In this document: positions 1 to 11,381 of the stretch, in pieces
How positions within the stretch are numbered: the first letter of the stretch is position 1
Layout of the letters: each line of letters begins with the position of its first letter
Virus record (IMG/VR): IMGVR_UViG_2703718769_000013
Span: 1 to 11,381 of that record
Strand: one strand, 5' to 3'
Length of the DNA stretch: 11,381 nt
From: a virus
Taxonomy: Duplodnaviria; Heunggongvirae; Uroviricota; Caudoviricetes
The notes under the pieces: model-generated
What the model was told of the DNA's origin: nothing
The model's input: only the letters and a program-made list of their open reading frames with translations
Databases searched by the model: none
Translations under genes and position numbers: made by a program

Positions 1-1119
1 TTAAATAACCAACTTAACCCATTCCTGACCTCGGGTATCGTTATAGCGATCGGTGGTAGCCTGGACTTTATGTCCCAGTAATGTTTTTGTATCGACACCC
101 TGTGCGCGGTACAACCGTTCTGACAGGGAGCGTTGTTCATGAAATGTTGGCGGTGTTTTTCCTGCTGGTGGAATTATTCCAGCCAGATCTCGCGCTTTGG
201 CGAAGTAATCGCTCAGGTTGTCTTTACTCATCGGTTTTGGTTGTTTCTGGTGCCTACTATGGATTAGGTATGGACTCAACATTCTGTCCCTGCATCCATC
301 AATAACTTCTTTTAACGATACCCCAATTTCATCGCATCGTAGCGTAAGAGGTAAGGCCAGACGCATTCCAGTTTTTCCTTGGGTTATATGTAGATGTCCA
401 TTCCATACATCTGAAAAACGCATGTGGCAAATGTCATCACGGCGCTGACCAGTAACAATCGCAAGAAGCATTGCGTTACGGATAAAGTGTTTTTCTGGTG
501 TTGCATTATAAATTTTTTGCCAGTCTTCCAGGGTGAGTCTGGATCTGGTCACTTTAGGGATCGGTTTACGGGTAGCCTCCGGAGGATTCCATCCAGGAGG
601 AACTTCTCCCGCATGCTGTGCTTCTTTATAAATATCAACCCATAATCCGCGATTTACTCTTGCTGTGCTGACCATGTCTTTATCCATCCACTCGTCCAGT
701 ATTAATGCAAAGTCTCTTACCTCCAGTTCTTTCAATGGGTGGTTTCCCAGGCGGGAAACCAGGTATGCAGCCATTCGCACTTTTTCTTTGTGGGTTGTAG
801 CTGCAATGTCTCCATTTTTCAGTCGCGAATCCTGTATTTTCAGATATCGATCAACCCATGCCTTTAATCTGATACCCCGACGTTTTGTTGCTGATGGACT
901 TTCATCAATTTTGCGCATGAAATATTCTGCTTCTGCTGCAGCTATTCGCTGATTGGCTGTTGAAGCGATTTTTTCTGCCTTGACTTTGTCTGTCCCGAGT
1001 CCGTGAAATTTTCCAGTCACAGGATTTTTATACTGGTAGTAAACCTTGCCAGTTCTGCGATCAAACTTTTCGTAAAGAGCTGCTACGTCAGTACTGTTTT
1101 TTCGTGGCCTCGGTGACAT
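1..1119 (-). CDS. int: Phage tyrosine integrase (lambda Int family)
   Basis: 372-aa ORF, stop is the reverse complement of bases 1-3 (TAA), ATG at 1117-1119 preceded by AAGGAG. Recognisable lambda-Int-like motifs: TFHEQRSLSERLY (His/Arg box) and C-terminal LLGHKVQATTDRYNDTRGQEW with the catalytic Tyr. Overlaps the upstream xis by 32 nt as in lambda. Confidence 0.9.
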   Translation of the reverse strand: MSPRPRKNSTDVAALYEKFDRRTGKVYYQYKNPVTGKFHGLGTDKVKAEKIASTANQRIAAAEAEYFMRKIDESPSATKRRGIRLKAWVDRYLKIQDSRLKNGDIAATTHKEKVRMAAYLVSRLGNHPLKELEVRDFALILDEWMDKDMVSTARVNRGLWVDIYKEAQHAGEVPPGWNPPEATRKPIPKVTRSRLTLEDWQKIYNATPEKHFIRNAMLLAIVTGQRRDDICHMRFSDVWNGHLHITQGKTGMRLALPLTLRCDEIGVSLKEVIDGCRDRMLSPYLIHSRHQKQPKPMSKDNLSDYFAKARDLAGIIPPAGKTPPTFHEQRSLSERLYRAQGVDTKTLLGHKVQATTDRYNDTRGQEWVKLVI

Positions 1120-1357
1120 GGGTTAAAATCTCCTTCAGTGCGTCATCATCGCCAGTATGAATTTCCGGCGCAATTCCAGCTTCACCCGGTCCAACAAAGA
1201 CTGCGCGGCGATCTATTAGCCAGCGACCACGAATTTTTTGTGGTCTTGGAACGATGTATCCTAGTTTTCCGTATTTCACCAGGGTAGTGTTTGTTATTGG
1301 GAGACTGAACCGTTTTGGTTTCCACTCGTCGAGCGTTATCAGGTACTGTTCGCTCAT
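1088..1357 (-). CDS. xis: Excisionase (Xis-like)
   Basis: 89-aa product MSEQYLITLDEWKPKRF... resembles the lambda Xis N-terminus (YLTLQEW...). GGAGTGA Shine-Dalgarno 6-7 nt before the ATG at 1357; an in-frame GTG at 1366 is an alternative start. 3' end overlaps the int start. Confidence 0.65.
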   Translation of the reverse strand: MSEQYLITLDEWKPKRFSLPITNTTLVKYGKLGYIVPRPQKIRGRWLIDRRAVFVGPGEAGIAPEIHTGDDDALKEILTHVTEATKKQY

Positions 1358-1418
1358 GGCTATCACTCCGGAACGCGCCAGTTGCAGAATATCAACGACA
1401 ACTGGCGACGGTTGAACA

Positions 1419-3893
1419 TTAAAAATCAGCCTGACTCGGGATCAGTTTTTGCCAGATAACTGAAACGTATTTTGCCTGGTAACGGGCGTCATCAAGTGCA
1501 TTATGGCGCTCACCTTCGAATGGAATAGCCGTTCTGGCATCGAAGTCTATGGCTTTCCCCAGCTCAACGATTGTGCGTACATCGCGATCGTTGTAGTAAC
1601 GCCACGGGCAGGGGATCCCCTGCCGTTCGTATGAACGGCGCAAAATCGTGTTGTCGAAGTTGGCTCCATTTCCCCAGACCTGAACAAAAAATTCACCGGA
1701 GTTTTCGTCGATAAATTCCCGCAATTGTAACAGTGCATCATCTAACGGGATTTCATCGGTCATAATGGCAGATTGCGCTTCGCGTGATTGCTTAAGCCAC
1801 CATTTAATGGTGTCCCGATCAATGACTCCGCCAGCAGTTTCCAGATCGATAGTCTTACTAAATTCCGGTCCCATATCTCCGGTTTGCGGATCGAAAAATA
1901 TTGCACCTATTGAGATGATCGGGGCATCAGGATTTTTTCCCATGGTTTCAAGGTCGATCATTAGATGGTCACACGTCCTGCTGGTGGATGTGATTTCTTG
2001 ATGACTGTTCACCTTAATTGAGTGATCTGCCGTCTCGCCAGTTTCATTATCGCTATCGTGATGCTGATTGCCGCCAGTGTTCTCCTTGTGTGGATGTTCA
2101 GCGCCTTCCATTTTCTCCGGATCATCTTCCTGAACTTCAACCTGATACTCTTCATCGAATGTTTCCTGGTATGTTGCGTCGCCCATCACCGCGCCACAAT
2201 CAGGGCAGTTGCCGCCGTCGGTCTGACCGCAGGCGGTGCAGACTTTTTCCACTTCCTGTTGCGCCACTGGTTCAGGCTGTTTCGTTTCTGGCTCGTTTTG
2301 TAACGCATTTGGGCTGTTTTGTTCCGCTTTTTGGTAGTTCCGTTCCGATTCATGCTGGTTCTGGTTTACAGAATCGCGGGTCTGGATCCCCTTAACCCAT
2401 TTCGGATCATTCGGGTCGCTAATCCCTGCAACAAATTCTCCGCGAGAGGCAGCAAGCAACTTATCGGCGTCAGGCTGGCTGATATTGGCTGCCTGCATAA
2501 TTTTGTTTACTTCGTCAGCGGTAACTTTTACCGGCTCTGGTTGTGCGGTCGTGTCAGATGCACCAGTATTTTGTTGTGAACCTGAGTATGTACTGTTTTT
2601 GCGGGCGAAATATTCTTCTTTCGTGATTTCAGTAGCCCCGGCAGCCAGTGCCTTATCCAGACCAGAAAGTTTGTTTGCGCGACCGTATTTTTCGCCATCC
2701 TTGTCGGTGAAGAGGAAGTAGAACGGCCCCTCACGCTCTACAGATGATTCGACTTCCACTTTGCATTCGGTTTTTTCGTTGTCCTGAATTGCCGTTTCCA
2801 CTGCGTCAGTTTCTGGTACTGGCGACGAGAGAGTATTAGCTGTGCCCTGATTTGTTCCTTCGTCATCTTCAAACACGCCCTTTGTAGTCAGGTATTCAGT
2901 GATGTATTTGTTCAGTGCCACGGGATCTTTGTGAATGTCGATCGGGCGTTCACGGACAAGGCCAAAAATAGTCTGGCGGCTGTAGCGAAGCGCATCAGGT
3001 TGTTTGCGCATTGATGCGGAGATGCGCTTCCAGTCTTCGCGATCTCTGGCGATAATTTCATTTTTAGCCCAGCGAAGGATGCTGCCGTCAATGTTTCCGG
3101 CATCCGCATCACCAGGCCAGAGATAGTAGGCCAGCTCCCTGTCCAGGGTTTTCCATGTCTGCTTGTATTCGCGATGAATGGCGGCAGTTACAGGAGGGAT
3201 TTTTTCTGCTGGGTTTTCAGTGTGCTGTCGGTTGGCTTTGGCGCGGGCAAGATCAACAACAGACGTGTATTTTCCAGTCTCTTTGCGCTCTGCGTCCTGC
3301 CGTTTTTTCCAGTTACGTAATTCAGCCTGAATTTCGGGCCATTTGGTACCCGGCTTACATTTGTGTTTAACCCATCCGATAGCGAACAGTTTGCGTTCCG
3401 GATACATAGCGTTAATTTCAGGCGTTTTCATCAGTGCTTCAACGATATGCCCGTCAAAGGTAGCCACGTCTTCTTGCAGTAATTCCTGCGCGTCAATCGC
3501 CATATCAACGGTGATGTTTTCACATGTACCGAACTTAACTAGGGCCGCGTTCTGTACTTCAAGGGACAGCTTGTCAAAATTGACGTTAATAGGATCGGAT
3601 TCTGGTTCGACCGGAATAAAGGAAGCGGATTCCTCATCCCAGCGGTTTTCCTGCATATATTCGGTATCCCAGGAGTCGATAGCAGGGCGGGGCATGCCGG
3701 GTTTATCTTCGCAGACAAGAAATTTATAAGCGCAGTCCTGAGCAGCAGGATATTGCTCCAGGAATTGCCAGGTAAATTTGGCACGGGCGCGGCGTTCATC
3801 ACCGGCTTCAATGGCAGTGGCTACAGCAACTGCGCCCTCTTCTTTTATTGCCTGTTCGTCCGGAATGGCGGCGCAAATAAAGACTTTACTCAT
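1419..3893 (-). CDS. RecE-like prophage exonuclease (exodeoxyribonuclease VIII family) with C-terminal DEDDh (DnaQ-like) 3'-5' exonuclease domain
   Basis: 824-aa ORF, ATG at 3891-3893 with GAGGT upstream. The last ~180 aa carry the three DEDDh motifs directly visible in the translation: MIDLETMG (Exo I), VWGNGANFD (Exo II), HNALDDARY (Exo III). Central CxxC-x7-CxxC (CTACGQTDGGNCPDCG) and long acidic low-complexity linkers. The segment LLAASRGEFVAGISDPNDPKWVKGIQTRD matches what I recall of RecE-family prophage exonucleases (memory only). Sits between xis and the dicB module, where ydfE/recE sit in Qin/Rac. Confidence 0.7.
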   Translation of the reverse strand: MSKVFICAAIPDEQAIKEEGAVAVATAIEAGDERRARAKFTWQFLEQYPAAQDCAYKFLVCEDKPGMPRPAIDSWDTEYMQENRWDEESASFIPVEPESDPINVNFDKLSLEVQNAALVKFGTCENITVDMAIDAQELLQEDVATFDGHIVEALMKTPEINAMYPERKLFAIGWVKHKCKPGTKWPEIQAELRNWKKRQDAERKETGKYTSVVDLARAKANRQHTENPAEKIPPVTAAIHREYKQTWKTLDRELAYYLWPGDADAGNIDGSILRWAKNEIIARDREDWKRISASMRKQPDALRYSRQTIFGLVRERPIDIHKDPVALNKYITEYLTTKGVFEDDEGTNQGTANTLSSPVPETDAVETAIQDNEKTECKVEVESSVEREGPFYFLFTDKDGEKYGRANKLSGLDKALAAGATEITKEEYFARKNSTYSGSQQNTGASDTTAQPEPVKVTADEVNKIMQAANISQPDADKLLAASRGEFVAGISDPNDPKWVKGIQTRDSVNQNQHESERNYQKAEQNSPNALQNEPETKQPEPVAQQEVEKVCTACGQTDGGNCPDCGAVMGDATYQETFDEEYQVEVQEDDPEKMEGAEHPHKENTGGNQHHDSDNETGETADHSIKVNSHQEITSTSRTCDHLMIDLETMGKNPDAPIISIGAIFFDPQTGDMGPEFSKTIDLETAGGVIDRDTIKWWLKQSREAQSAIMTDEIPLDDALLQLREFIDENSGEFFVQVWGNGANFDNTILRRSYERQGIPCPWRYYNDRDVRTIVELGKAIDFDARTAIPFEGERHNALDDARYQAKYVSVIWQKLIPSQADF

Positions 3894-3986
3894 TTTGTTT
3901 TAACCTCATTACAGATTTAAGGGTGAACAAATCCCTGCCATTGCTGGCATATAAAAATGAAACCGGATATTAATTACGGTGCTGTT

Positions 3987-4178
3987 TTAAAGTCCTGCCG
4001 GTATTTCGTTATTATTAGTGTGAGTAGTTTTATCTACCGGATAACAGTTACCGGGAATTTTTTGTTCTGATGCTGCAGCCATGCATTCTTTCATTGAACC
4101 GTATAAGCCAGTCACCAGCTCAAGAGATTCGCCGGAAACAAGATAAACTGTCAGAACGAGTGCAAATGTTGTATTCAT
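3987..4178 (-). CDS. ydfD: YdfD-like small lysis protein (63 aa, N-terminal hydrophobic segment)
   Basis: 63-aa ORF MNTTFALVLTVYLVSG... immediately downstream of dicB with an ATGA start/stop overlap (4175-4178); AAGGA Shine-Dalgarno. Same size and position as ydfD of the Qin prophage; the family assignment is from memory. Confidence 0.65.
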   Translation of the reverse strand: MNTTFALVLTVYLVSGESLELVTGLYGSMKECMAAASEQKIPGNCYPVDKTTHTNNNEIPAGL

Positions 4179-4363
4179 TGTTTATATCCTTTTTGCAGCA
4201 GGTCCAGACGAGCCAGCATTGAAGGAATGCATACTTCATTTAACAGGTCCTGCTCGAGTTTTCTCTGCTTAATGGCGTCTTCAATAAATGTTTTGTCTCC
4301 AGTGATAACGCCAATTTCGAAACGAAGTTCAGACGTGCTGGCATTACATGATAACTTTTCCAT
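4175..4363 (-). CDS. dicB: Cell-division inhibitor DicB
   Basis: Internal ATG at 4361-4363 of the 97-aa track ORF gives a 62-aa protein MEKLSCNASTSELRFEIGVITGDKTFIEDAIKQRKLEQDLLNEVCIPSMLARLDLLQKGYKQ. This aligns along its full length with E. coli DicB as I recall it (…FEIGV…TEDAINKRKQERELLNKICIVSMLARL…). The longer 97-aa form is rejected because DicB is 62 aa. Confidence 0.85.
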   Translation of the reverse strand: MEKLSCNASTSELRFEIGVITGDKTFIEDAIKQRKLEQDLLNEVCIPSMLARLDLLQKGYKQ

Positions 4364-4533
4364 TATCGCGTCCTCAACAATGAATTTTGTGATGCGGTGC
4401 CTGGTGCCTCCAGGTGACGTTAACCAGTTAACAATTAACGCCGGATACAGAGAATCCACCCATAACACTGTTTTTGGTTTTAACTGTTCCGCGTGCGCTG
4501 AGCCGCATTCACCGCATCACAAAATTCACTTTT

Positions 4534-4591
4534 AAAAAAGGGCGGCAGAGCAGTCACGGAGTAAAACTGATACCGCCAAATGTCACCAGAA
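4534..4591 (-). ncRNA. dicF: DicF small regulatory RNA (Hfq-dependent sRNA repressing ftsZ)
   Basis: Minus strand reads TTCTGGTGACATTTGGCGGTATCAGTTTTACTCCGTGACTGCTCTGCCGCCCTTTTTT, nearly identical to K-12 DicF as I remember it, ending in a GC stem plus U-tract. Lies about 170 nt upstream of dicB, the conserved arrangement. Ends are approximate (a few nt). Confidence 0.8.
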
Positions 4592-4868
4592 TATTGATAA
4601 CAGAGGGCGTTGTAGCGGGGTTGTCACTTAAGCGTATGGTCAACCTGACAACCCGGTGTCCTCAACGGGGAAAGGCGTCCCTCCCACCCCCGCCATACTT
4701 ACCGCCGCGCCATTTCGCGGGGCGCCACAACCGGAAGCGCACGGTCGAATTAAATTTAACGACACCGTGCAGTGAGACGAACTTCGCCGTGCGCTTTCGT
4801 GTTGTGTGCCTGCTTTTAACCACGTCAGGCGAGGTGGTTTCCGTCATTCCCCAACGACAGGAAATCTG

Positions 4869-4874
4869 TATAAT
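4869..4874 (+). promoter_or_regulatory. Candidate -10 element (TATAAT) for the plus-strand 148-aa gene
   Basis: Perfect TATAAT at 4869-4874, 30-70 nt upstream of two plus-strand start codons; no convincing -35 hexamer. Confidence 0.3.
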
Positions 4875-4940
4875 CTGGATATCCCCAACGATCCAAGGAA
4901 ATCATATGACAGAGCAAAGAGCACAAGCAGGTGATGGTGT

Positions 4941-5387
4941 ATGGACCGGGATGATATTCTTGACAGAATTTTATATGGCTATTTTCTTGAGCAACTGTTT
5001 TCTGTAGCGACTGGTCGTCTCGATAAACTTCTCTCAGTAGTGAGTATTATCCTCGGTTCATCTGTCATTGGCGGATTCATTCCGGAAATTTCTGGCGTTT
5101 TTATTGTTGTGATCGCAACCGACCAAACGATTTATGGATTCGGACAAAAGTCAGGTAATGCCATGAGAAAATCCGCAGAATATTTGCAGCTTTTTGATGA
5201 TGCAGAAAAATATTCTGATTCGGAATTGAAAATTCAGTTAAAAACTCTGGGAAAAACAGATGATCATATTTGGTCATCACTTAAAGATATTGCGATCTTA
5301 AAAACACAGATCAAAATAGGCGTCTCCATCGAACAACACGAGAAGTTGCCCACAAAATCCAAATTGATGCGATTTCTTTGTGGTTAG
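4941..5387 (+). CDS. Hypothetical two-transmembrane membrane protein (candidate superinfection-exclusion / abortive-infection effector; SieB-like or SLATT-like, unverified)
   Basis: 148-aa ORF with AGGTGA Shine-Dalgarno 6 nt before the ATG. Two adjacent hydrophobic helices (LLSVVSIILGSSVIGGF, ISGVFIVVIATDQTIYGF) followed by a charged helical tail. Visibly AT-rich compared with its neighbours. Encoded on the strand opposite to the surrounding dicB operon. Confidence 0.55.
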   Translation: MDRDDILDRILYGYFLEQLFSVATGRLDKLLSVVSIILGSSVIGGFIPEISGVFIVVIATDQTIYGFGQKSGNAMRKSAEYLQLFDDAEKYSDSELKIQLKTLGKTDDHIWSSLKDIAILKTQIKIGVSIEQHEKLPTKSKLMRFLCG

Positions 5388-5412
5388 GAATATCCAGATT
5401 GTTAAAGAGCAT

Positions 5413-5436
5413 GCCGGAGGTTTATCCGTGTCCGGC
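5413..5436. terminator. Stem-loop between the convergent 148-aa gene and ydfC (possible bidirectional terminator or RNA-stability element)
   Basis: GCCGGA-N12-TCCGGC inverted repeat 26 nt after the 148-aa gene stop and about 40 nt after the ydfC stop; no clean U-tract on either strand. Confidence 0.25.
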
Positions 5437-5476
5437 GCACGCACTTCATCTGCGGAGAACTACTTGAGCTCATTGG

Positions 5477-5692
5477 TCAGTAGTTTTCAATCACTCGCGA
5501 AACGTTTAATGCCGCGCTTTTTGCCAGAGTGGTAATATCCTGCTCCGCTGACACCAGTTCTTTAGAGAGGCGCTCTTTGTAGTCAGCGGCCTGCTTCAGG
5601 TCATTAATGGCGCGTATCTTTCCGCACATCCATTCGTAAATTTCATCCTCGGTATAGTCTGGTGCGATGATGACGGGTTCTCGTTTCTGCAT
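5477..5692 (-). CDS. ydfC: YdfC-like protein (Qin-type dicB operon)
   Basis: 71-aa ORF MQKREPVIIAPDYTEDEIYEW... with GAGGAA Shine-Dalgarno; third gene of a tightly packed ydfA-ydfB-ydfC array. Name assigned by size and synteny, from memory. Confidence 0.6.
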   Translation of the reverse strand: MQKREPVIIAPDYTEDEIYEWMCGKIRAINDLKQAADYKERLSKELVSAEQDITTLAKSAALNVSRVIENY

Positions 5693-5721
5693 ACTGATTC
5701 CTCGCGGTGCCGCTTCGCTTA

Positions 5722-5850
5722 TCAGTCGTTAGATTTTGCCGAACTGGAAAGCGCCTGTTTAAACTCACTGAAGCTGAGAGCTTCTTCGCCTTCGGCAAGG
5801 CCTTCGAAGTATTCTTCGTAAGCCTTTTCCATGATTGCGTCGAAATCCAT
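5722..5850 (-). CDS. ydfB: YdfB-like small protein (42 aa)
   Basis: Not in the supplied ORF track (under 60 aa). Hand translation from the ATG at 5848-5850 gives MDFDAIMEKAYEEYFEGLAEGEEALSFSEFKQALSSSAKSND, stop TGA at 5722-5724. AGGTGA Shine-Dalgarno; start lies 2 nt from the ydfA stop. Confidence 0.55.
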   Translation of the reverse strand: MDFDAIMEKAYEEYFEGLAEGEEALSFSEFKQALSSSAKSND

Positions 5851-5851
5851 A

Positions 5852-6007
5852 TCACTCACCTGAATTTCTTTCCAGCCAGCGACGCGCGCCAGCTTCGGTT
5901 TTAAACGTTTTGCTTCTGGTATACGTCATCGCGGTGAACGTACCGTCTTGGTTTGGAAACACGCCGTACACCAGAGATTCGTTGTTGCCAAGATCGATAG
6001 TATCCAT
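5852..6007 (-). CDS. ydfA: YdfA-like protein (51 aa)
   Basis: Internal ATG at 6005-6007 with GAGGT Shine-Dalgarno gives a 51-aa protein MDTIDLGNNESLVYGVFPNQDGTFTAMTYTRSKTFKTEAGARRWLERNSGE. Size and sequence fit what I recall of Qin YdfA. The 78-aa extension has no ribosome-binding site. Confidence 0.65.
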   Translation of the reverse strand: MDTIDLGNNESLVYGVFPNQDGTFTAMTYTRSKTFKTEAGARRWLERNSGE

Positions 6008-6186
6008 GCTGACCTCATTTCCCCTTAACGCCGGGGTAGCGGAACAAAAACCTGCTGCATAGTTATTAAAGTTGAACCCTGCCGTCATGTTCTTACGCCT
6101 CGGGCTGGCTACTTAACCCCTGACCACTGCCTGGTAACTCGAAGTATTGCCCTGCGTTCTGTGGGGCGGGGTGGGTTGGTATGTAT

Positions 6187-6234
6187 ATAATGTACTTTAT
6201 GTTCAGTGTTGTAAAGTACTTTAAGTACATTTTA
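6187..6234. promoter_or_regulatory. OL-like operator cluster and candidate leftward promoter for the ydfABC-dicF-dicB operon
   Basis: Three related TGTACT-core sites: aaTGTACTtt (6189-6198), aaaGTACttt (6213-6222, part of the perfect 12-bp palindrome TAAAGTACTTTA at 6212-6223), aaGTACattt (6223-6232). Candidate minus-strand promoter: -35 TTTACA (6215-6210), 17-bp spacer, -10 CATTAT (6192-6187). Confidence 0.4.
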
Positions 6235-6305
6235 TGTGTAAAAAAATGAGATGGGAAAAAGTGAAACACAAACCCGGAGGGGGACGCTACCGGATTTATG
6301 CTGGT

Positions 6306-6725
6306 TTAAGAGGCTTTTTGTTTTTTCTTTCGTGCTAACTCTTCGTAAATTGCATTGTACTTTTGTTTTTTCTCCTCAAGAGTTTTTAAAAGTTCATCTG
6401 TCTCACTGTCAGGGAGCTCGTCCAGAAGATCAATGATGATTTTTTGTCTTGGATTTAACTCCTGATAGAAACGTACCTGTCCACTTTCTTCTGTATCCTC
6501 TCCCAAAAGATAGGTTGGTGTTGTTCCAATGAGTGTTGCTAATTCCCTTAATTTCTCTCGGCGAGGAATTGTTTCGCCATTAAACCATTTGCTAACCGCT
6601 TTTGGTGTTAATTTCATTCGACGGGCAATTTCTGCCTGCCTTCCATGTTGTTCATAACCAGCGTTTTCACAGGCTAGCGCAAGCCTACTGGCGAACTCTT
6701 TACGCGCTTTATCTTCATGAACCAT
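6306..6725 (-). CDS. dicA: DicA/cI-like XRE-family HTH repressor
   Basis: 139 aa. N-terminal HTH (GRQAEIARRMKLTPKAVSKWFNGETIP) and acidic C-terminal LLDELPDSETDELLKTLEEKK... resembling the DicA C-terminus as recalled. Divergent from the Cro-like gene and upstream of the dicB operon. No Shine-Dalgarno before the ATG; a -10-like TATCAT lies 8-13 nt upstream, which suggests a leaderless mRNA as for lambda cI. Confidence 0.8.
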   Translation of the reverse strand: MVHEDKARKEFASRLALACENAGYEQHGRQAEIARRMKLTPKAVSKWFNGETIPRREKLRELATLIGTTPTYLLGEDTEESGQVRFYQELNPRQKIIIDLLDELPDSETDELLKTLEEKKQKYNAIYEELARKKKQKAS

Positions 6726-6732
6726 AAGTTCA

Positions 6733-6785
6733 ATGATATTCGCTCTTGAATGTACTGTCAGTTCTGTTATAGAGTGTACTCAAAG
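6733..6785. promoter_or_regulatory. Divergent PRM/PR-like promoter-operator region between the repressor and the Cro-like gene
   Basis: Two TGTACT-core sites (cores at 6752-6755 and 6776-6779, 24 bp apart, the same spacing as two of the OL-like sites). Rightward candidate: TTGAAT (6746-6751), 16-bp spacer, TATAGA (6768-6773). Leftward candidate: CTGACA (6761-6756), 17-bp spacer, TATCAT (6738-6733). Confidence 0.45.
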
Positions 6786-6804
6786 TTCACATTGTGAGGG
6801 TGAT

Positions 6805-7059
6805 ATGAACCAGAAAACACTTGAAGATGTAATCAAAACTGTTCGCGTTTCTGTTGTGGCCGACGTTTGTGGTGTCAGCCAAAGAGCAATCTACAAATGG
6901 ATGGATAACGGAAAATTGCCTCGCACTGAATATACCGGCGAAACAAATTATGCTGAAAAAATCGCTCATGCATCAAACGGATTATTTTCTGCCGATGCAA
7001 TTTTAACTATTGGCAGAAATAAAACTACTACGAAAAAGCTGTTGGGAGTTGATTCATGA
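6805..7059 (+). CDS. Cro/DicC/YdaS-like small HTH regulator
   Basis: 84-aa protein from the ATG at 6805 (GAGGG Shine-Dalgarno). HTH region VADVCGVSQRAIYKWMDNGKLP typical of Cro/YdaS-type regulators. The upstream ATG at 6733 would leave only 7 bp between divergent genes. Stop overlaps the next start (ATGA at 7056-7059). Confidence 0.75.
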   Translation: MNQKTLEDVIKTVRVSVVADVCGVSQRAIYKWMDNGKLPRTEYTGETNYAEKIAHASNGLFSADAILTIGRNKTTTKKLLGVDS

Positions 7060-7481
7060 AAATCAAGCATGAGCACATCCGCATGGCGATGAATGCCTGG
7101 GCGCATCCGGACGGCGAAAAAGTTCCGGCAGCTGAAATAACCCGGGCTTATTTTGAACTGGGTATGACGTTTCCGGAACTGTACGACGATACTCATCCAG
7201 GCGCTCTGGGTCTTAATACCCAGAAGATTTTCCGCTGGGTAAAGAAAGATACTCCTGATGCCGTTGAAAAAATGCAGGCTCTGTTACCGGCGATCGAAAA
7301 GGCGATGCCGCCTTTGCTGGTGGCCCGTATGCGCAGCCACAGTTCTGAGTATTACCGTGAGATTGTCGAACGGAGGGATCGGTTGATGAAAGATGTCGAC
7401 GATTTTGTTGCGTCAGCGGTTGTTTTGTATGACCAGATGAATCGCGGCGGCCCGGCAGGAAATGCCGTGGTGATGCACTAA
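7056..7481 (+). CDS. YdaT-like protein (proposed CII-like regulator; historically annotated as a toxin)
   Basis: 141 aa, MKIKHEHI... N-terminus. Translationally coupled to the Cro-like gene; GGGAG Shine-Dalgarno. Same position as ydaT after ydaS in Rac-type prophages (family call from memory). Confidence 0.6.
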   Translation: MKIKHEHIRMAMNAWAHPDGEKVPAAEITRAYFELGMTFPELYDDTHPGALGLNTQKIFRWVKKDTPDAVEKMQALLPAIEKAMPPLLVARMRSHSSEYYREIVERRDRLMKDVDDFVASAVVLYDQMNRGGPAGNAVVMH

Positions 7482-7503
7482 AAGCACGGTGTTCGGGGGT
7501 TTT

Positions 7504-8472
7504 ATGAGCAGCAAGCTTCATGGTCTTGTCTGGGAAGGGTGCGCCTTCACCGGCATGATCTTATCCAGGGTGGCGGTTATGGCCCGTCTTGCAGACTACA
7601 GCAATGACGAGGGCGTGTCATGGCCTGCCATTGAAACTATCCGGCGTCAGATCGGTGCAAGAAGTGAATCCACCGTTAAATCTGCTATTGCAGAACTGGC
7701 GAAAGAGGGCTGGCTGACGAAGGAAGAGCGTAAGGTCGGTGGGCGTAACGTAAGCAATATCTATCGGCTTAATGTGGAAAAACTCGAAGCAGCTGCAACT
7801 GCGGCGCGTGAGGCATATAAACCGAAAAGAAAAATTATCCCGGCAAAAAATGACCCGTTAACAGTTAACCCGTCAAATATTGCCCCCTCAACGGTTGACC
7901 CGTCAAATGTTGATGGATCAACGGTTGATAAAAAACTGCGTATTAGGGGGGCGATGATTGACCCCGATCCGTCAGTATTAAAACCTGATCCGTCAGATAA
8001 AAGATCTTTTTGTCCGGACGTTTCACTGCCGGACGAAAAACGATCATCACCAGTTGAGCGATTTCTGGAGAAACACCCGGATGCGCATACCTGGAATGTA
8101 CCGAAGCGACAGTGGGGTACCCGTGAGGATGTCTCCTGTGCGCAGTGGATTTGGGGACGGGTTGTGGCGTTGTATGAACAGGCCGCCAGTGATGATGGTG
8201 AGGTGTCACGCCCCAGGGAACCTAACTGGACGACCTGGGCGAATGATGTGCGCATGATGCGTATGCTGGATGGACGTAGTCACCGACAGATTTGTGAAAT
8301 GTTTGGGCGTGTTCAACGGGATTCGTTCTGGGTAAAAAACATCATGAGTCCGGCAAAACTCCGGGAAAAATGGGATGAACTGGTTATTCGCCTGGGGCGT
8401 TCGCCCGCGCAGCGTTGCGTGAATCATATTTCTGAACCGGATACCGAAATTCCGCCGGGGTTCAGGGGGTAG
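7504..8472 (+). CDS. Replication initiation protein (lambda O analogue / replisome organiser) with N-terminal winged-helix domain
   Basis: About 322 aa from the ATG at 7504 (GGGGG upstream); the track starts at an in-frame GTG at 7489. N-terminal HTH-like region; internal DNA repeats that double as peptide repeats; located directly upstream of the DnaC-like loader. Confidence 0.65.
   Translation: MSSKLHGLVWEGCAFTGMILSRVAVMARLADYSNDEGVSWPAIETIRRQIGARSESTVKSAIAELAKEGWLTKEERKVGGRNVSNIYRLNVEKLEAAATAAREAYKPKRKIIPAKNDPLTVNPSNIAPSTVDPSNVDGSTVDKKLRIRGAMIDPDPSVLKPDPSDKRSFCPDVSLPDEKRSSPVERFLEKHPDAHTWNVPKRQWGTREDVSCAQWIWGRVVALYEQAASDDGEVSRPREPNWTTWANDVRMMRMLDGRSHRQICEMFGRVQRDSFWVKNIMSPAKLREKWDELVIRLGRSPAQRCVNHISEPDTEIPPGFRG
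7852..7999. repeat. Iteron-like direct repeats inside the O-like gene (candidate phage replication origin)
   Basis: Five copies of GAYCCGTYA (starting at 7852, 7867, 7897, 7966, 7987) plus two copies of near-palindromic TCAACGGTTGA (7888-7898, 7918-7928), followed by an A-rich stretch (7929-7937). This matches the lambda arrangement of the origin inside gene O. Confidence 0.5.
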
Positions 8473-8478
8473 CGCATC

Positions 8479-9219
8479 ATGAAAAACATTACGTCAGGTG
8501 GTGTTCTGGCAAGAGTCAGCAGATTTGTGCCGCAGGATGCAATCCATCCGTACCGTACGGTGTCGGAGTGGCGGGAATGGCAGCTTGCTGAAGGGCGTAA
8601 GCGAAGCGAGGAGGTTAATCGTCTGAATCATCAGACGCGGGTTGAAAAAATCATTAACCGCTCCGGTATCCAGCAGCTTCACCGGAAGTGTACGTTCGGT
8701 AACTACCGGGTGCAGAACGATGGTCAGCGCCATGCCCTGAGTCAGGCGAAATCCATTGCGGCAGAGCTGGAAGGCGGCTGTACGAATTTTGTTTTCAGTG
8801 GCAGGCCTGGCACAGGAAAAAACCACCTGGCGGCGGCTATTGGCAACCACCTTCTGGCGAAAGGTCGCAGTGTGATTGTGATAACAGTGGCGGATGTGAT
8901 GCTGGCGTTACATGGCAGCTACGACAACAAAAACTCGGGCGAAAAATTTTTGCAGGGATTGTGTGGCGTTGACCTGCTGGTACTGGATGAAATTGGCATG
9001 CAACGGGATACGCGTAATGAGCAGGTCACGCTGAATCAGATTGTTGACCGCAGAACGGCATCGTTACTCAGTGTGGGGATGCTGACAAATCTTAACCATG
9101 CAGCGATGAATACACTTCTCGGCGAGCGGGTGATGGACCGCATGTCCATGAACGGTGGTCGCTGGGTGACTTTTAACTGGGAGAGCTGGCGTCCGAACGT
9201 CAGCCAGCACAGGAACTGA
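8479..9219 (+). CDS. DnaC-like helicase loader (AAA+ ATPase, IstB/DnaC family)
   Basis: 246 aa with Walker [12 protein letters not shown] and Walker B LLVLDEIG; follows the O-like gene as in the lambda P / Rac ydaV position. Confidence 0.85.
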
Positions 9220-9248
9220 GAAGTAATTTTTATCCGGAGGAAATTTTA

Positions 9249-9965
9249 ATGGAAACCGTATTTGACGCACTGAAAGCACTGAAAAGAGCCTCTTCACAGG
9301 TAGTGGCATCGCGCCTTGGAATCAGCCGTGAAGATGCGGTCAACGAACTGTGGAAACTGAAGCGCCGCGGTGAAGCGGATAACAAGGGGTCGATGTGGTG
9401 GCTGACTCAGGCTGGTGAAAGTGAACCGGTGTCACCGGTACCGAAAGTGACTGCGCAAATGCTGACAGAGGCGATTGAACAACATGGCCCACAAACGGCG
9501 GATGAACTGGCACTGATGTTCGGAATTACCTCCCGCCGGGCGAATTCATCGCTGGCGATGGCAATCAGCAAAGGGCGTCTGATTCGCGTGAATCAGGGCG
9601 GTAAATTTCGTTACTGCATACCGGGCGCTGATTTACCGGCAGAGCCGGAAGCTGCATCCGTAGCGGAAACGGATGGTAAAGCCTTTCCTCAGCCAGCAGG
9701 TGTTGCGTTACCAGTCCGGGAAGCGGAAACACAGGAAGAAATGAAAACAGAAATCGTGGAAGACATTGTGAAGTTACAGCCATCGATCACCGAAACGAAA
9801 GCAGATGACCTGATTCTACCATCGCTGCATGTGGCTAACCGCGAGCTGCGCCGGGCGAAAAGTGATGTCCAGAAGTGGGAGCGTGTCTGTGCTGCGCTGC
9901 GGGAACTGAACAAACACAGGGATATTCTCCGGGATATTACCACCACCAGAGAGCAGCAGCGGTGA
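9249..9965 (+). CDS. Hypothetical phage protein with two N-terminal winged-helix-like repeats and a charged coiled C-terminus
   Basis: 238-aa ORF, GGAGG Shine-Dalgarno 8 nt before the ATG. Two similar ~50-aa segments each ending in a basic beta-hairpin-like motif. No family recognised with certainty. Confidence 0.55.
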
Positions 9966-10279
9966 GTGGCTGGAAGACGTGGTGCCGGGCGGAAATCCTG
10001 ATACTCCGGCAGTGTGCGGGAACAATGACGGTGGAATGCATCGGGATGCTTATTGGTCGTAGTGAGGCTGCGGTCAGAACGAAAGCGCGGGAACTGGGTA
10101 TTAGTATGATGTTACGGGGTGATTATCACCAGTCAGCAAAATATCCGCAGAGTGATATTGAGCTGGCGCGACAGCAGCATCAGCGTGGCGTGTCGAGGAG
10201 AGAAATCGCCAGAAAATTCGGAATGCCGTTGCGCACAGTGAATAACTACGTTTATTTCGACAGGAGGGTGTCTGCGTGA
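9962..10279 (+). CDS. Small DNA-binding protein with tandem HTH repeats (GcrA-N-terminal-like pattern)
   Basis: GTG at 9962 overlaps the upstream stop (GTGA). Two repeats of the pattern W-x2-W/E-x3-L-x5-G-x-(T/S)-x2-E-I-(A/G)-x2-(F/I)-G-R-S-x2-AV ([42 protein letters not shown] and [32 protein letters not shown]). The ATG at 10025 is an alternative start; the track start at 9875 overlaps too deeply. Confidence 0.5.
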
Positions 10280-10503
10280 AAATCCTGTATCAGGATTACG
10301 GCCCGGTGGGGCAGGTGCTTATCAGCAGTACTGTAATGGAGTTCCGGAAGCATAACCGTGTGGTGGATTCTGTGCTGTTAACCTGTCCGGGGATATCGGC
10401 GAGTCGTGCAGGTGTGTTTATTATGAAGACGAAATTATATGGCAGTAAGGCGTGGATAAAGAAGGCGTATCGTGTAGCGTTGCAGGAGGTTAACAGTGAG
10501 TGA
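10276..10503 (+). CDS. Hypothetical small protein (75 aa)
   Basis: GTG start overlapping the upstream stop, preceded by AGGAGG at 10263-10268 (7-nt spacer). No recognisable family. Confidence 0.45.
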   Translation: MKILYQDYGPVGQVLISSTVMEFRKHNRVVDSVLLTCPGISASRAGVFIMKTKLYGSKAWIKKAYRVALQEVNSE

Positions 10504-10807
10504 AATTAAAGAAATGCCGGTAGTTCGTGACGAATATGGCTACTGGACACATCCTGAATATGAAAAATTCTGTGATGGTCGGGAGAATATTTCAACGGAA
10601 GAATTTAACGCGTGGATGGAGGCAAATAATCTTCAGTGGACTATCTGCACTATGGATGAAGATGATTTTAACCTGGACGCAGATGGCCCTGATATTTCAG
10701 CATGGGAACCGGAACGACCAGAGGGCGATGGCTGGTTTATTGGTTCCATTCATGATACGGAAGATGGCCCGGTTTGTGTCTGGTTGCGAAATAAGGCTGA
10801 AGCATAA
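10496..10807 (+). CDS. Hypothetical acidic phage protein (103 aa)
   Basis: GTG at 10496 with strong AGGAGG Shine-Dalgarno (10484-10489, 6-nt spacer), overlapping the previous gene by 8 nt. Very acidic, Trp-rich sequence typical of small nin-region phage proteins. Confidence 0.6.
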   Translation: MSEIKEMPVVRDEYGYWTHPEYEKFCDGRENISTEEFNAWMEANNLQWTICTMDEDDFNLDADGPDISAWEPERPEGDGWFIGSIHDTEDGPVCVWLRNKAEA

Positions 10808-11153
10808 AGGCGATAAACCAACTAACAACTAAATACTGAAGATTTAAATCAGAAACGATTTTTATTAAATCCTTAACCGGAGGGATTCCTGCACCCTCAG
10901 AATATCAGGAGGCCGCCCGAAAGGGCGGTAAGAAATGAAACATTATTTAGAAAAAATTACCCACGAAAGAGCAGAACAACAGAGTTTCTGTTTTTCATTC
11001 TGTTTATAGTGTTGATGATACCGATATCCCCGCTATTACTGGTCTGGATAATTGGAAGGACATTTGAACCAGTTATTGAGCTATATACCGATGTGACATG
11101 GGAATCATTCAGCGCACTGCACAATAAAATTAATCCGTATAAGGAAAACTGAT

Positions 11154-11381
11154 ATGAGCACTATTACCAGAGAACGCGCGGAGATTAAATCATACATCAC
11201 AGGCTTCCTGAGCGACTCGGCGCACGATAACAAGTCTTCAGACAGCCTGCTGGCTAATGTGTTTCGTATCGCGCTGGCATCACTGGAAGCAGAGCCGATA
11301 GCAATGGTAGTGCCTGATGAAATGGATTTGCTTACCTGCCATCTCGACGGTGTAACTAAAACATATGCTGATGGCTGGAAC
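11154..11381 (+). CDS. Hypothetical protein, 3'-truncated by the window end
   Basis: ATG at 11154 preceded by AAGGA; open frame MSTITRERAEIKSYITGFLSD... runs to the last base of the window. Confidence 0.5.
   Translation, partial: MSTITRERAEIKSYITGFLSDSAHDNKSSDSLLANVFRIALASLEAEPIAMVVPDEMDLLTCHLDGVTKTYADGWN

Follow-up and report, generated by a model that had tools for sequence, protein, structure and literature searches.

A recurrent natural allele of the DicF small RNA with two 5′ substitutions and predicted weaker pairing with xylR

Results

The dicF locus in an apparently complete prophage

We analyzed a window of 11,381 nt of phage DNA (IMG/VR record IMGVR_UViG_2703718769_000013, positions 1 to 11,381), which along its entire length shares 98.3% identity with a prophage lying beside potC in E. 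coli OkiPb01678 (bovine faeces; NZ_AP042495). Read from the left end, the minus strand carries an integrase gene (1–1119) followed by an excisionase gene, the gene for an 824-aa exonuclease (1419–3893), a DUF1482/ydfD-like gene (3987–4178), dicB (4175–4363, 62 aa; Pfam PF05358, DicB, E = 7e-39, together with BLASTP and the PGAP annotation of NZ_AP042495), dicF (4540–4592), and the ydfA, ydfB, and ydfC-like genes (5477–6007, from the NZ_AP042495 annotation; the ydfC-like gene at 5477–5692) that make up the upstream part of a dicBF-type operon. The order ydfA-ydfB-ydfC-dicF-dicB-DUF1482, which rests on the PGAP gene calls for NZ_AP042495 and the Pfam DicB match, is as in Qin, so that dicF has the same operon position here as in K-12 (ydfABC-dicF-dicB-ydfD). 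A minus-strand gene for an HTH repressor (6306–6725; Pfam HTH_3) stands in the position of dicA, and beyond it the plus strand carries cro-like, ydaT, and replication genes in divergent orientation.

The ydfA-ydfB segment is 95% identical to K-12, and DicB is 55% identical as protein and 74% as DNA. The spacer between DicF and dicB (4364–4592) is ∼97% identical to K-12, with identity falling sharply at the very start codon of dicB. The repressor shares no more than 29% identity with DicA (BLASTP), and the two prophages therefore differ in immunity; the DicF cassette is common to prophages with different immunity regions. Qin is cryptic, whereas the window prophage, at potC, is apparently complete. 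As a whole, the window looks like the Qin/dicBF arrangement in an apparently complete, mosaic lambdoid prophage.

DicF in the window and its differences from the K-12 allele

A single Rfam family was found in the whole window by cmscan, namely DicF (RF00039), at 4591–4540 on the minus strand. The match scores 77 bits (gathering threshold 48; E = 5e-16) and spans model positions 1–52 of 52. The RF00039 model begins at nt 2 of the 53-nt K-12 RNA, and the dicF gene is accordingly placed at 4592–4540. In the predicted fold, nt 1–15 are free and nt 16–52 form the terminator hairpin, after which comes the U6 tail of the intrinsic terminator (4534–4539, minus strand; U5 in K-12; sequence, alignment, and fold). 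The MFE and centroid structures are the same, with an energy of −15.9 kcal/mol (z = −2.5), and three of 200 shuffled sequences reach an equally good fold. The earlier note on this DNA had reported a DicF homolog with its terminator on the minus strand, upstream of dicB, and all of these results agree with it; the span that it gave, 4534–4591, covers DicF but takes in the U6 tail (4539–4534) and leaves out nt 1 (4592). The element is a genuine full-length DicF, an ordinary and already known sRNA in its known context.

As reference we used the annotated dicF ncRNA of MG1655 (NC_000913, 1649382–1649434; b1574, Qin; RF00039). Pairwise alignment showed the two RNAs to be identical at 51 of 53 nt, with exactly two substitutions, both toward the 5′ end, where the earlier note had reported one or two differences from K-12. 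These are U > A at nt 1 (U1A, position 4592), directly 3′ of the RNase E cut, and G > A at nt 12 (G12A, position 4581), which the alignment and the duplex model described below place in the middle of the seed that pairs with xylR. DicF nt 13–53 are identical to K-12, and the hairpin and terminator are shared, the tail 3′ of the hairpin reading U6A4 in the window and U5A3 in K-12. The 232 nt that run from nt 1 of DicF to the start codon of dicB contain five substitutions and one indel of 2 nt, and a leader hairpin differs from its Qin counterpart by an 8-nt indel.

A 598-bp insertion upstream of dicF

Relative to K-12 Qin, the window has a 598-bp AT-rich insertion (4817–5414) that separates the ydfC-like gene from the dicF processing module. 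In operon orientation it lies 225 nt upstream of DicF, and its GC content is 40%, compared with 58% for the dicF leader. Inside it is a 148-aa ORF (4941–5387, plus strand; a PGAP CDS in NZ_AP042495), convergent with the dicBF operon, that matches phrog_6315, a family of unknown function (E = 2e-22). The ORF had no Pfam or PADLOC match, and a homologue search returned only hypothetical proteins from E. coli and Salmonella. The encoded protein has a hydrophobic segment near residues 29–60, and the ORF is present in 72–89 of 5426 complete E. coli genomes. The insertion also contains a perfect TATAAT on the plus strand (4869–4874) and, starting at 4906 in another frame, an ORF of 33 codons that has a good Shine-Dalgarno sequence.

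The junction at ∼4817, just before an RNase III stem, is a shared recombination point. Seven IMG/VR loci carry the window DicF allele (L091, L111, L117, and L119 were compared with L058, L088, and L113), and at this place three of them have the 148-aa ORF and four have other cargo of ∼900 bp, which looks like a variable cargo slot beside a conserved dicF cassette.

Any plus-strand transcription from the insertion had been expected in the earlier note to be antisense to DicF, an expectation that the orientation of the ORF contradicts. Its transcription runs to higher coordinates, away from 4540–4592, and the ORF is antisense to the precursor upstream of dicF and not to DicF itself; since it reads away from dicF, no antisense RNA to DicF should arise from it. 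Below 4540, the annotation of NZ_AP042495 has minus-strand genes only. A promoter and terminator scan of 4100–6900 gave results at chance level (five promoter-like matches found, 3.9 ± 1.9 expected), and the sole plus-strand promoter-like match to the left of dicF (4428–4455, 9/12) is in sequence common to K-12.

Processing signals

In K-12 the operon promoter upstream of ydfA is the sole source of DicF, no internal promoter having been found; RNase III yields a species of 190 nt, and RNase E makes the 5′ end of the 53-nt RNA (PMC10448788); an RNase III site for a 72-nt DicF species has also been described (PMC9438474). The flanking RNase III stems and the context of the RNase E site are the same in the window as in Qin. 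An inverted repeat upstream of dicF (4731–4800, minus strand; ACGAAAGCGCACGGCGAAG ... UUCGACCGUGCGCUUCCGG), the counterpart of the stem cut by RNase III in K-12 to give the 190-nt species, is conserved with K-12 in alignment and folds into a long stem in both, its 3′ arm holding the 5′ end of the 190-nt species. Downstream, folds and alignment point to a long-range dicF-dicB stem (4380–4529, minus strand) with arms at 4529–4510 and 4399–4380. Two substitutions relative to K-12 fall in its opposite arms and each turns a G·U pair into G-C, a pattern that fits selection on the stem as an RNase III substrate.

At the RNase E cleavage point, the context is AAU↓AUUC in the window and AAU↓UUUC in K-12. 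The consensus for RNase E is reportedly RN↓WUU, as Chao and colleagues are said to have found in 2017, and we take AAU↓AUUC at window positions 4593/4592 still to fit it. U1A is probably neutral because A or U is retained at the +1 position of the RNase E site. In MFE folds of the 190- and 198-nt precursors, the RNase E site lies in the loop of a predicted hairpin (4581–4602, minus strand; UGUUAUCA / UGGUGACA) in which DicF nt 5–12 pair with the 8 nt directly upstream, and G12A turns the closing U·G of this hairpin into U-A.

Pairing with target mRNAs

Published mutagenesis has mapped pairing with the ftsZ ribosome-binding site to the 3′ region of DicF and pairing with manX to its 3′ end, and pykA control depends on G36; only xylR uses the 5′ end, at nt 4–15 (PMC5069750, PMC5861419). 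We computed pairing energies against the K-12 target regions with a home-made model that combines ViennaRNA duplexfold on sub-windows with opening energies. Full-length RNAduplex against 200-nt targets was discarded, as it ignored intramolecular structure and paired the RNAs from end to end at unrealistic energies of −35 to −52 kcal/mol.

In this model, DicF nt 25–37 pair with ftsZ −13 to +1 with a hybrid energy of −12.8 kcal/mol, equal for both alleles; pykA pairs with nt 26–43 at the same energy for both, and the manX duplex with nt 35–53 is unchanged. A difference between alleles in the manX output (−10.8 vs. −7.9 kcal/mol) was not interpreted, being due only to the opening-energy term for the terminator hairpin and not to the duplex. 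All three pairing regions are within nt 25–53, which the window shares with Qin DicF. The earlier note had assigned ftsZ pairing to the 5′ region, and both the mutagenesis and the model place it in the unchanged 3′ part instead. Repression of ftsZ, pykA, and manX is expected to be as in K-12, because nt 13–53 are identical.

The xylR segment from +9 to +20 (UAAACGUCACCG) pairs perfectly with nt 6–15 of K-12 DicF (GGUGACGUUU), with hybrid and total energies of −15.9 and −12.6 kcal/mol, respectively. For the window allele the corresponding values are −11.3 and −7.95 kcal/mol: G12A places an A·C mismatch midway along the duplex, and perfect pairing shrinks from 10 to 6 bp, leaving GGUGAC. The supposition that small 5′ changes shift the targets of DicF is thus plausible for xylR, G12A being inside the mapped pairing region, but does not extend to ftsZ, pykA, or manX.

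Laboratory mutants affecting the same duplex allow this loss to be calibrated. From the supplementary oligonucleotides, DicF3 was read as GGU6-8 > CCA, DicF9 as CUC32-34 > GAG, and DicF23 as G36C, and DicF11 was identified as G7C from oligo O-DB451. Like G12A, DicF11 and DicF3 disrupt the duplex between the 5′ seed and xylR, and DicF11 relieved xylR regulation in the laboratory (Balasubramanian et al. 2016; PMC5069750). Its modeled energies against xylR (−11.2 and −7.8 kcal/mol) are about equal to those of the window allele, so the predicted energy loss is the same, and the window allele is therefore predicted to be about as impaired as one in which xylR regulation was lost. The two laboratory mutants were engineered and tested by over-expression, whereas G12A is natural and leaves the GGUGAC core intact. 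Of 5408 complete E. coli genomes, 5386 have the same xylR segment from −15 to +49, so that hosts offer no compensating change. By the model, the window allele probably represses xylR more weakly than K-12 DicF does, although the GC-rich 6-bp seed GGUGAC, together with Hfq, may be enough for repression. We also searched the window for a complement of the variant seed, as a phage-encoded target would have; only dicF itself matched, and one further match with two mismatches is at chance level.

Distribution of DicF alleles

We counted alleles as exact matches to 64 nt (12 nt upstream plus nt 1–52) in complete E. coli genome records. The K-12 allele U1/G12 was present in 3759 records, the window allele A1/A12 in 204, and a third allele, U1/A12, in 121, including O157:H7 strains. 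Strain E2865 carries both the window and the K-12 allele, and OkiPb01678 has three places matching the 261-nt dicF region. A1/A12 is a recurrent natural allele and is not unusual; the base at nt 12 in the RF00039 consensus is itself A (“a”).

Among 133 IMG/VR contigs, nt 12 was G in 109, A in 16 (seven of them with A1), and U in five, and the only other changes in the seed were G10 (two contigs) and A9 (one contig), making nt 12 the most variable position of the DicF 5′ seed. Each of these natural variants (A12, U12, G10, and A9) lowers the predicted pairing with xylR in the duplex model. In representatives chosen as one genome per species, the dicF motif, with G12 in every case, was confined to Escherichia and Shigella apart from two MAG contigs that are probably mis-binned. 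These two contigs (L145 and L146) are labelled Veillonella parvula and Collinsella sp. and have E. coli-type dicF and flanks; they are most likely mis-binned Escherichia prophage DNA.

The DicF copies of EHEC O157:H7 include a U1/A12 copy with the same G12A (exact in strains 4276, 9234, and others) beside a canonical copy. The best listed O157:H7 match to the window allele, in strain Z563, has one mismatch, and the exact O157:H7 matches listed are to U1/A12, none of them to A1/A12. A review that covers Melson and Kendall (2019) reports that all four DicF copies of EHEC, each when over-produced, reversed the narL effect. With both U1/A12 and K-12 alleles present in O157:H7 genomes, that reported result suggests that some functions of DicF are unaffected by A12.

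Discussion

We consider it likely that the window holds a working copy of DicF in the early-left operon, with standard biogenesis and action and probably with weaker control of xylR. By analogy with K-12, DicF would be cut from an operon transcript whose start lies between ydfA and the repressor gene, with RNase III cutting the conserved upstream stem, RNase E making the 5′ end between 4593 and 4592, and the hairpin with its U6 terminator making the 3′ end. With Hfq, the RNA would then repress ftsZ, pykA, and manX as K-12 DicF does, and the G12A mismatch would weaken the duplex of 10–12 bp with xylR codons 3–7, such that xylR would be repressed more weakly.

The xylR part of this account is challenged by a neutral polymorphism, with both substitutions lacking effect and the window copy acting on the same targets as K-12 DicF, xylR included. 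We lean against this but regard it as a serious possibility: A1/A12 is widespread (204 records), A12 is the Rfam consensus base, a perfect GC-rich seed of 6 bp remains against xylR, and the occurrence of G, A, or U at nt 12 in natural copies fits relaxed constraint. What speaks for weaker control is that a single mismatch elsewhere in this duplex, that of G7C, was enough to abolish control of xylR, with a predicted energy loss the same as that of G12A. That the 5′ changes alter ftsZ targeting and that the insertion sends plus-strand transcription antisense to DicF is, by comparison with the data above, highly improbable. In its favor is only that the 5′ end of DicF does differ from K-12; ftsZ pairs at equal energy with the unchanged nt 25–37, the ORF in the insertion points away, no plus-strand gene is present below 4540, and promoter-like matches are no more frequent than chance.

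The insertion could act in another way, lowering DicF and DicB output by Rho-dependent termination, transcriptional interference, or cleavage of double-stranded RNA. The precursor crosses ∼885 nt of untranslated RNA (∼340 nt in K-12), part of it antisense to the convergent gene, and the insert brings both that ORF and the perfect plus-strand TATAAT. Dependence of K-12 DicF on the distal operon promoter alone, without an internal one (PMC10448788), is consistent with such an effect, as is the lack of a minus-strand promoter-like site between 4592 and 5476. The argument is nevertheless purely inferential, and it has to be set against intact RNase III and RNase E modules, a C > G bias on the operon strand that is weak, and the finding of other cargo at the same junction in related prophages, which suggests that the arrangement is tolerated. 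We think reduced output quite unlikely, and return to a working DicF copy with weaker control of xylR as the preferred interpretation.

A bolder extension of this interpretation is that DicF nt 12 is a naturally selected switch, A12 and U12 copies keeping control of ftsZ and losing that of xylR and perhaps of other 5′-seed targets responsible for much of the toxicity of DicF. It seems to us rather unlikely; if true, prophages with A12 or U12 would cost their host less, or would complement a canonical DicF copy that shares the cell.

DicF, its making, and its targets are already well described, and hundreds of public genomes already contain the A1/A12 allele. The comparison indicates that not every natural copy of DicF is equivalent to the others, nt 12 being variable within the validated xylR duplex and the target site invariant. 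Where studies take multiple DicF copies as interchangeable, as in EHEC, allele-specific effects on xylose metabolism and toxicity would be worth checking.
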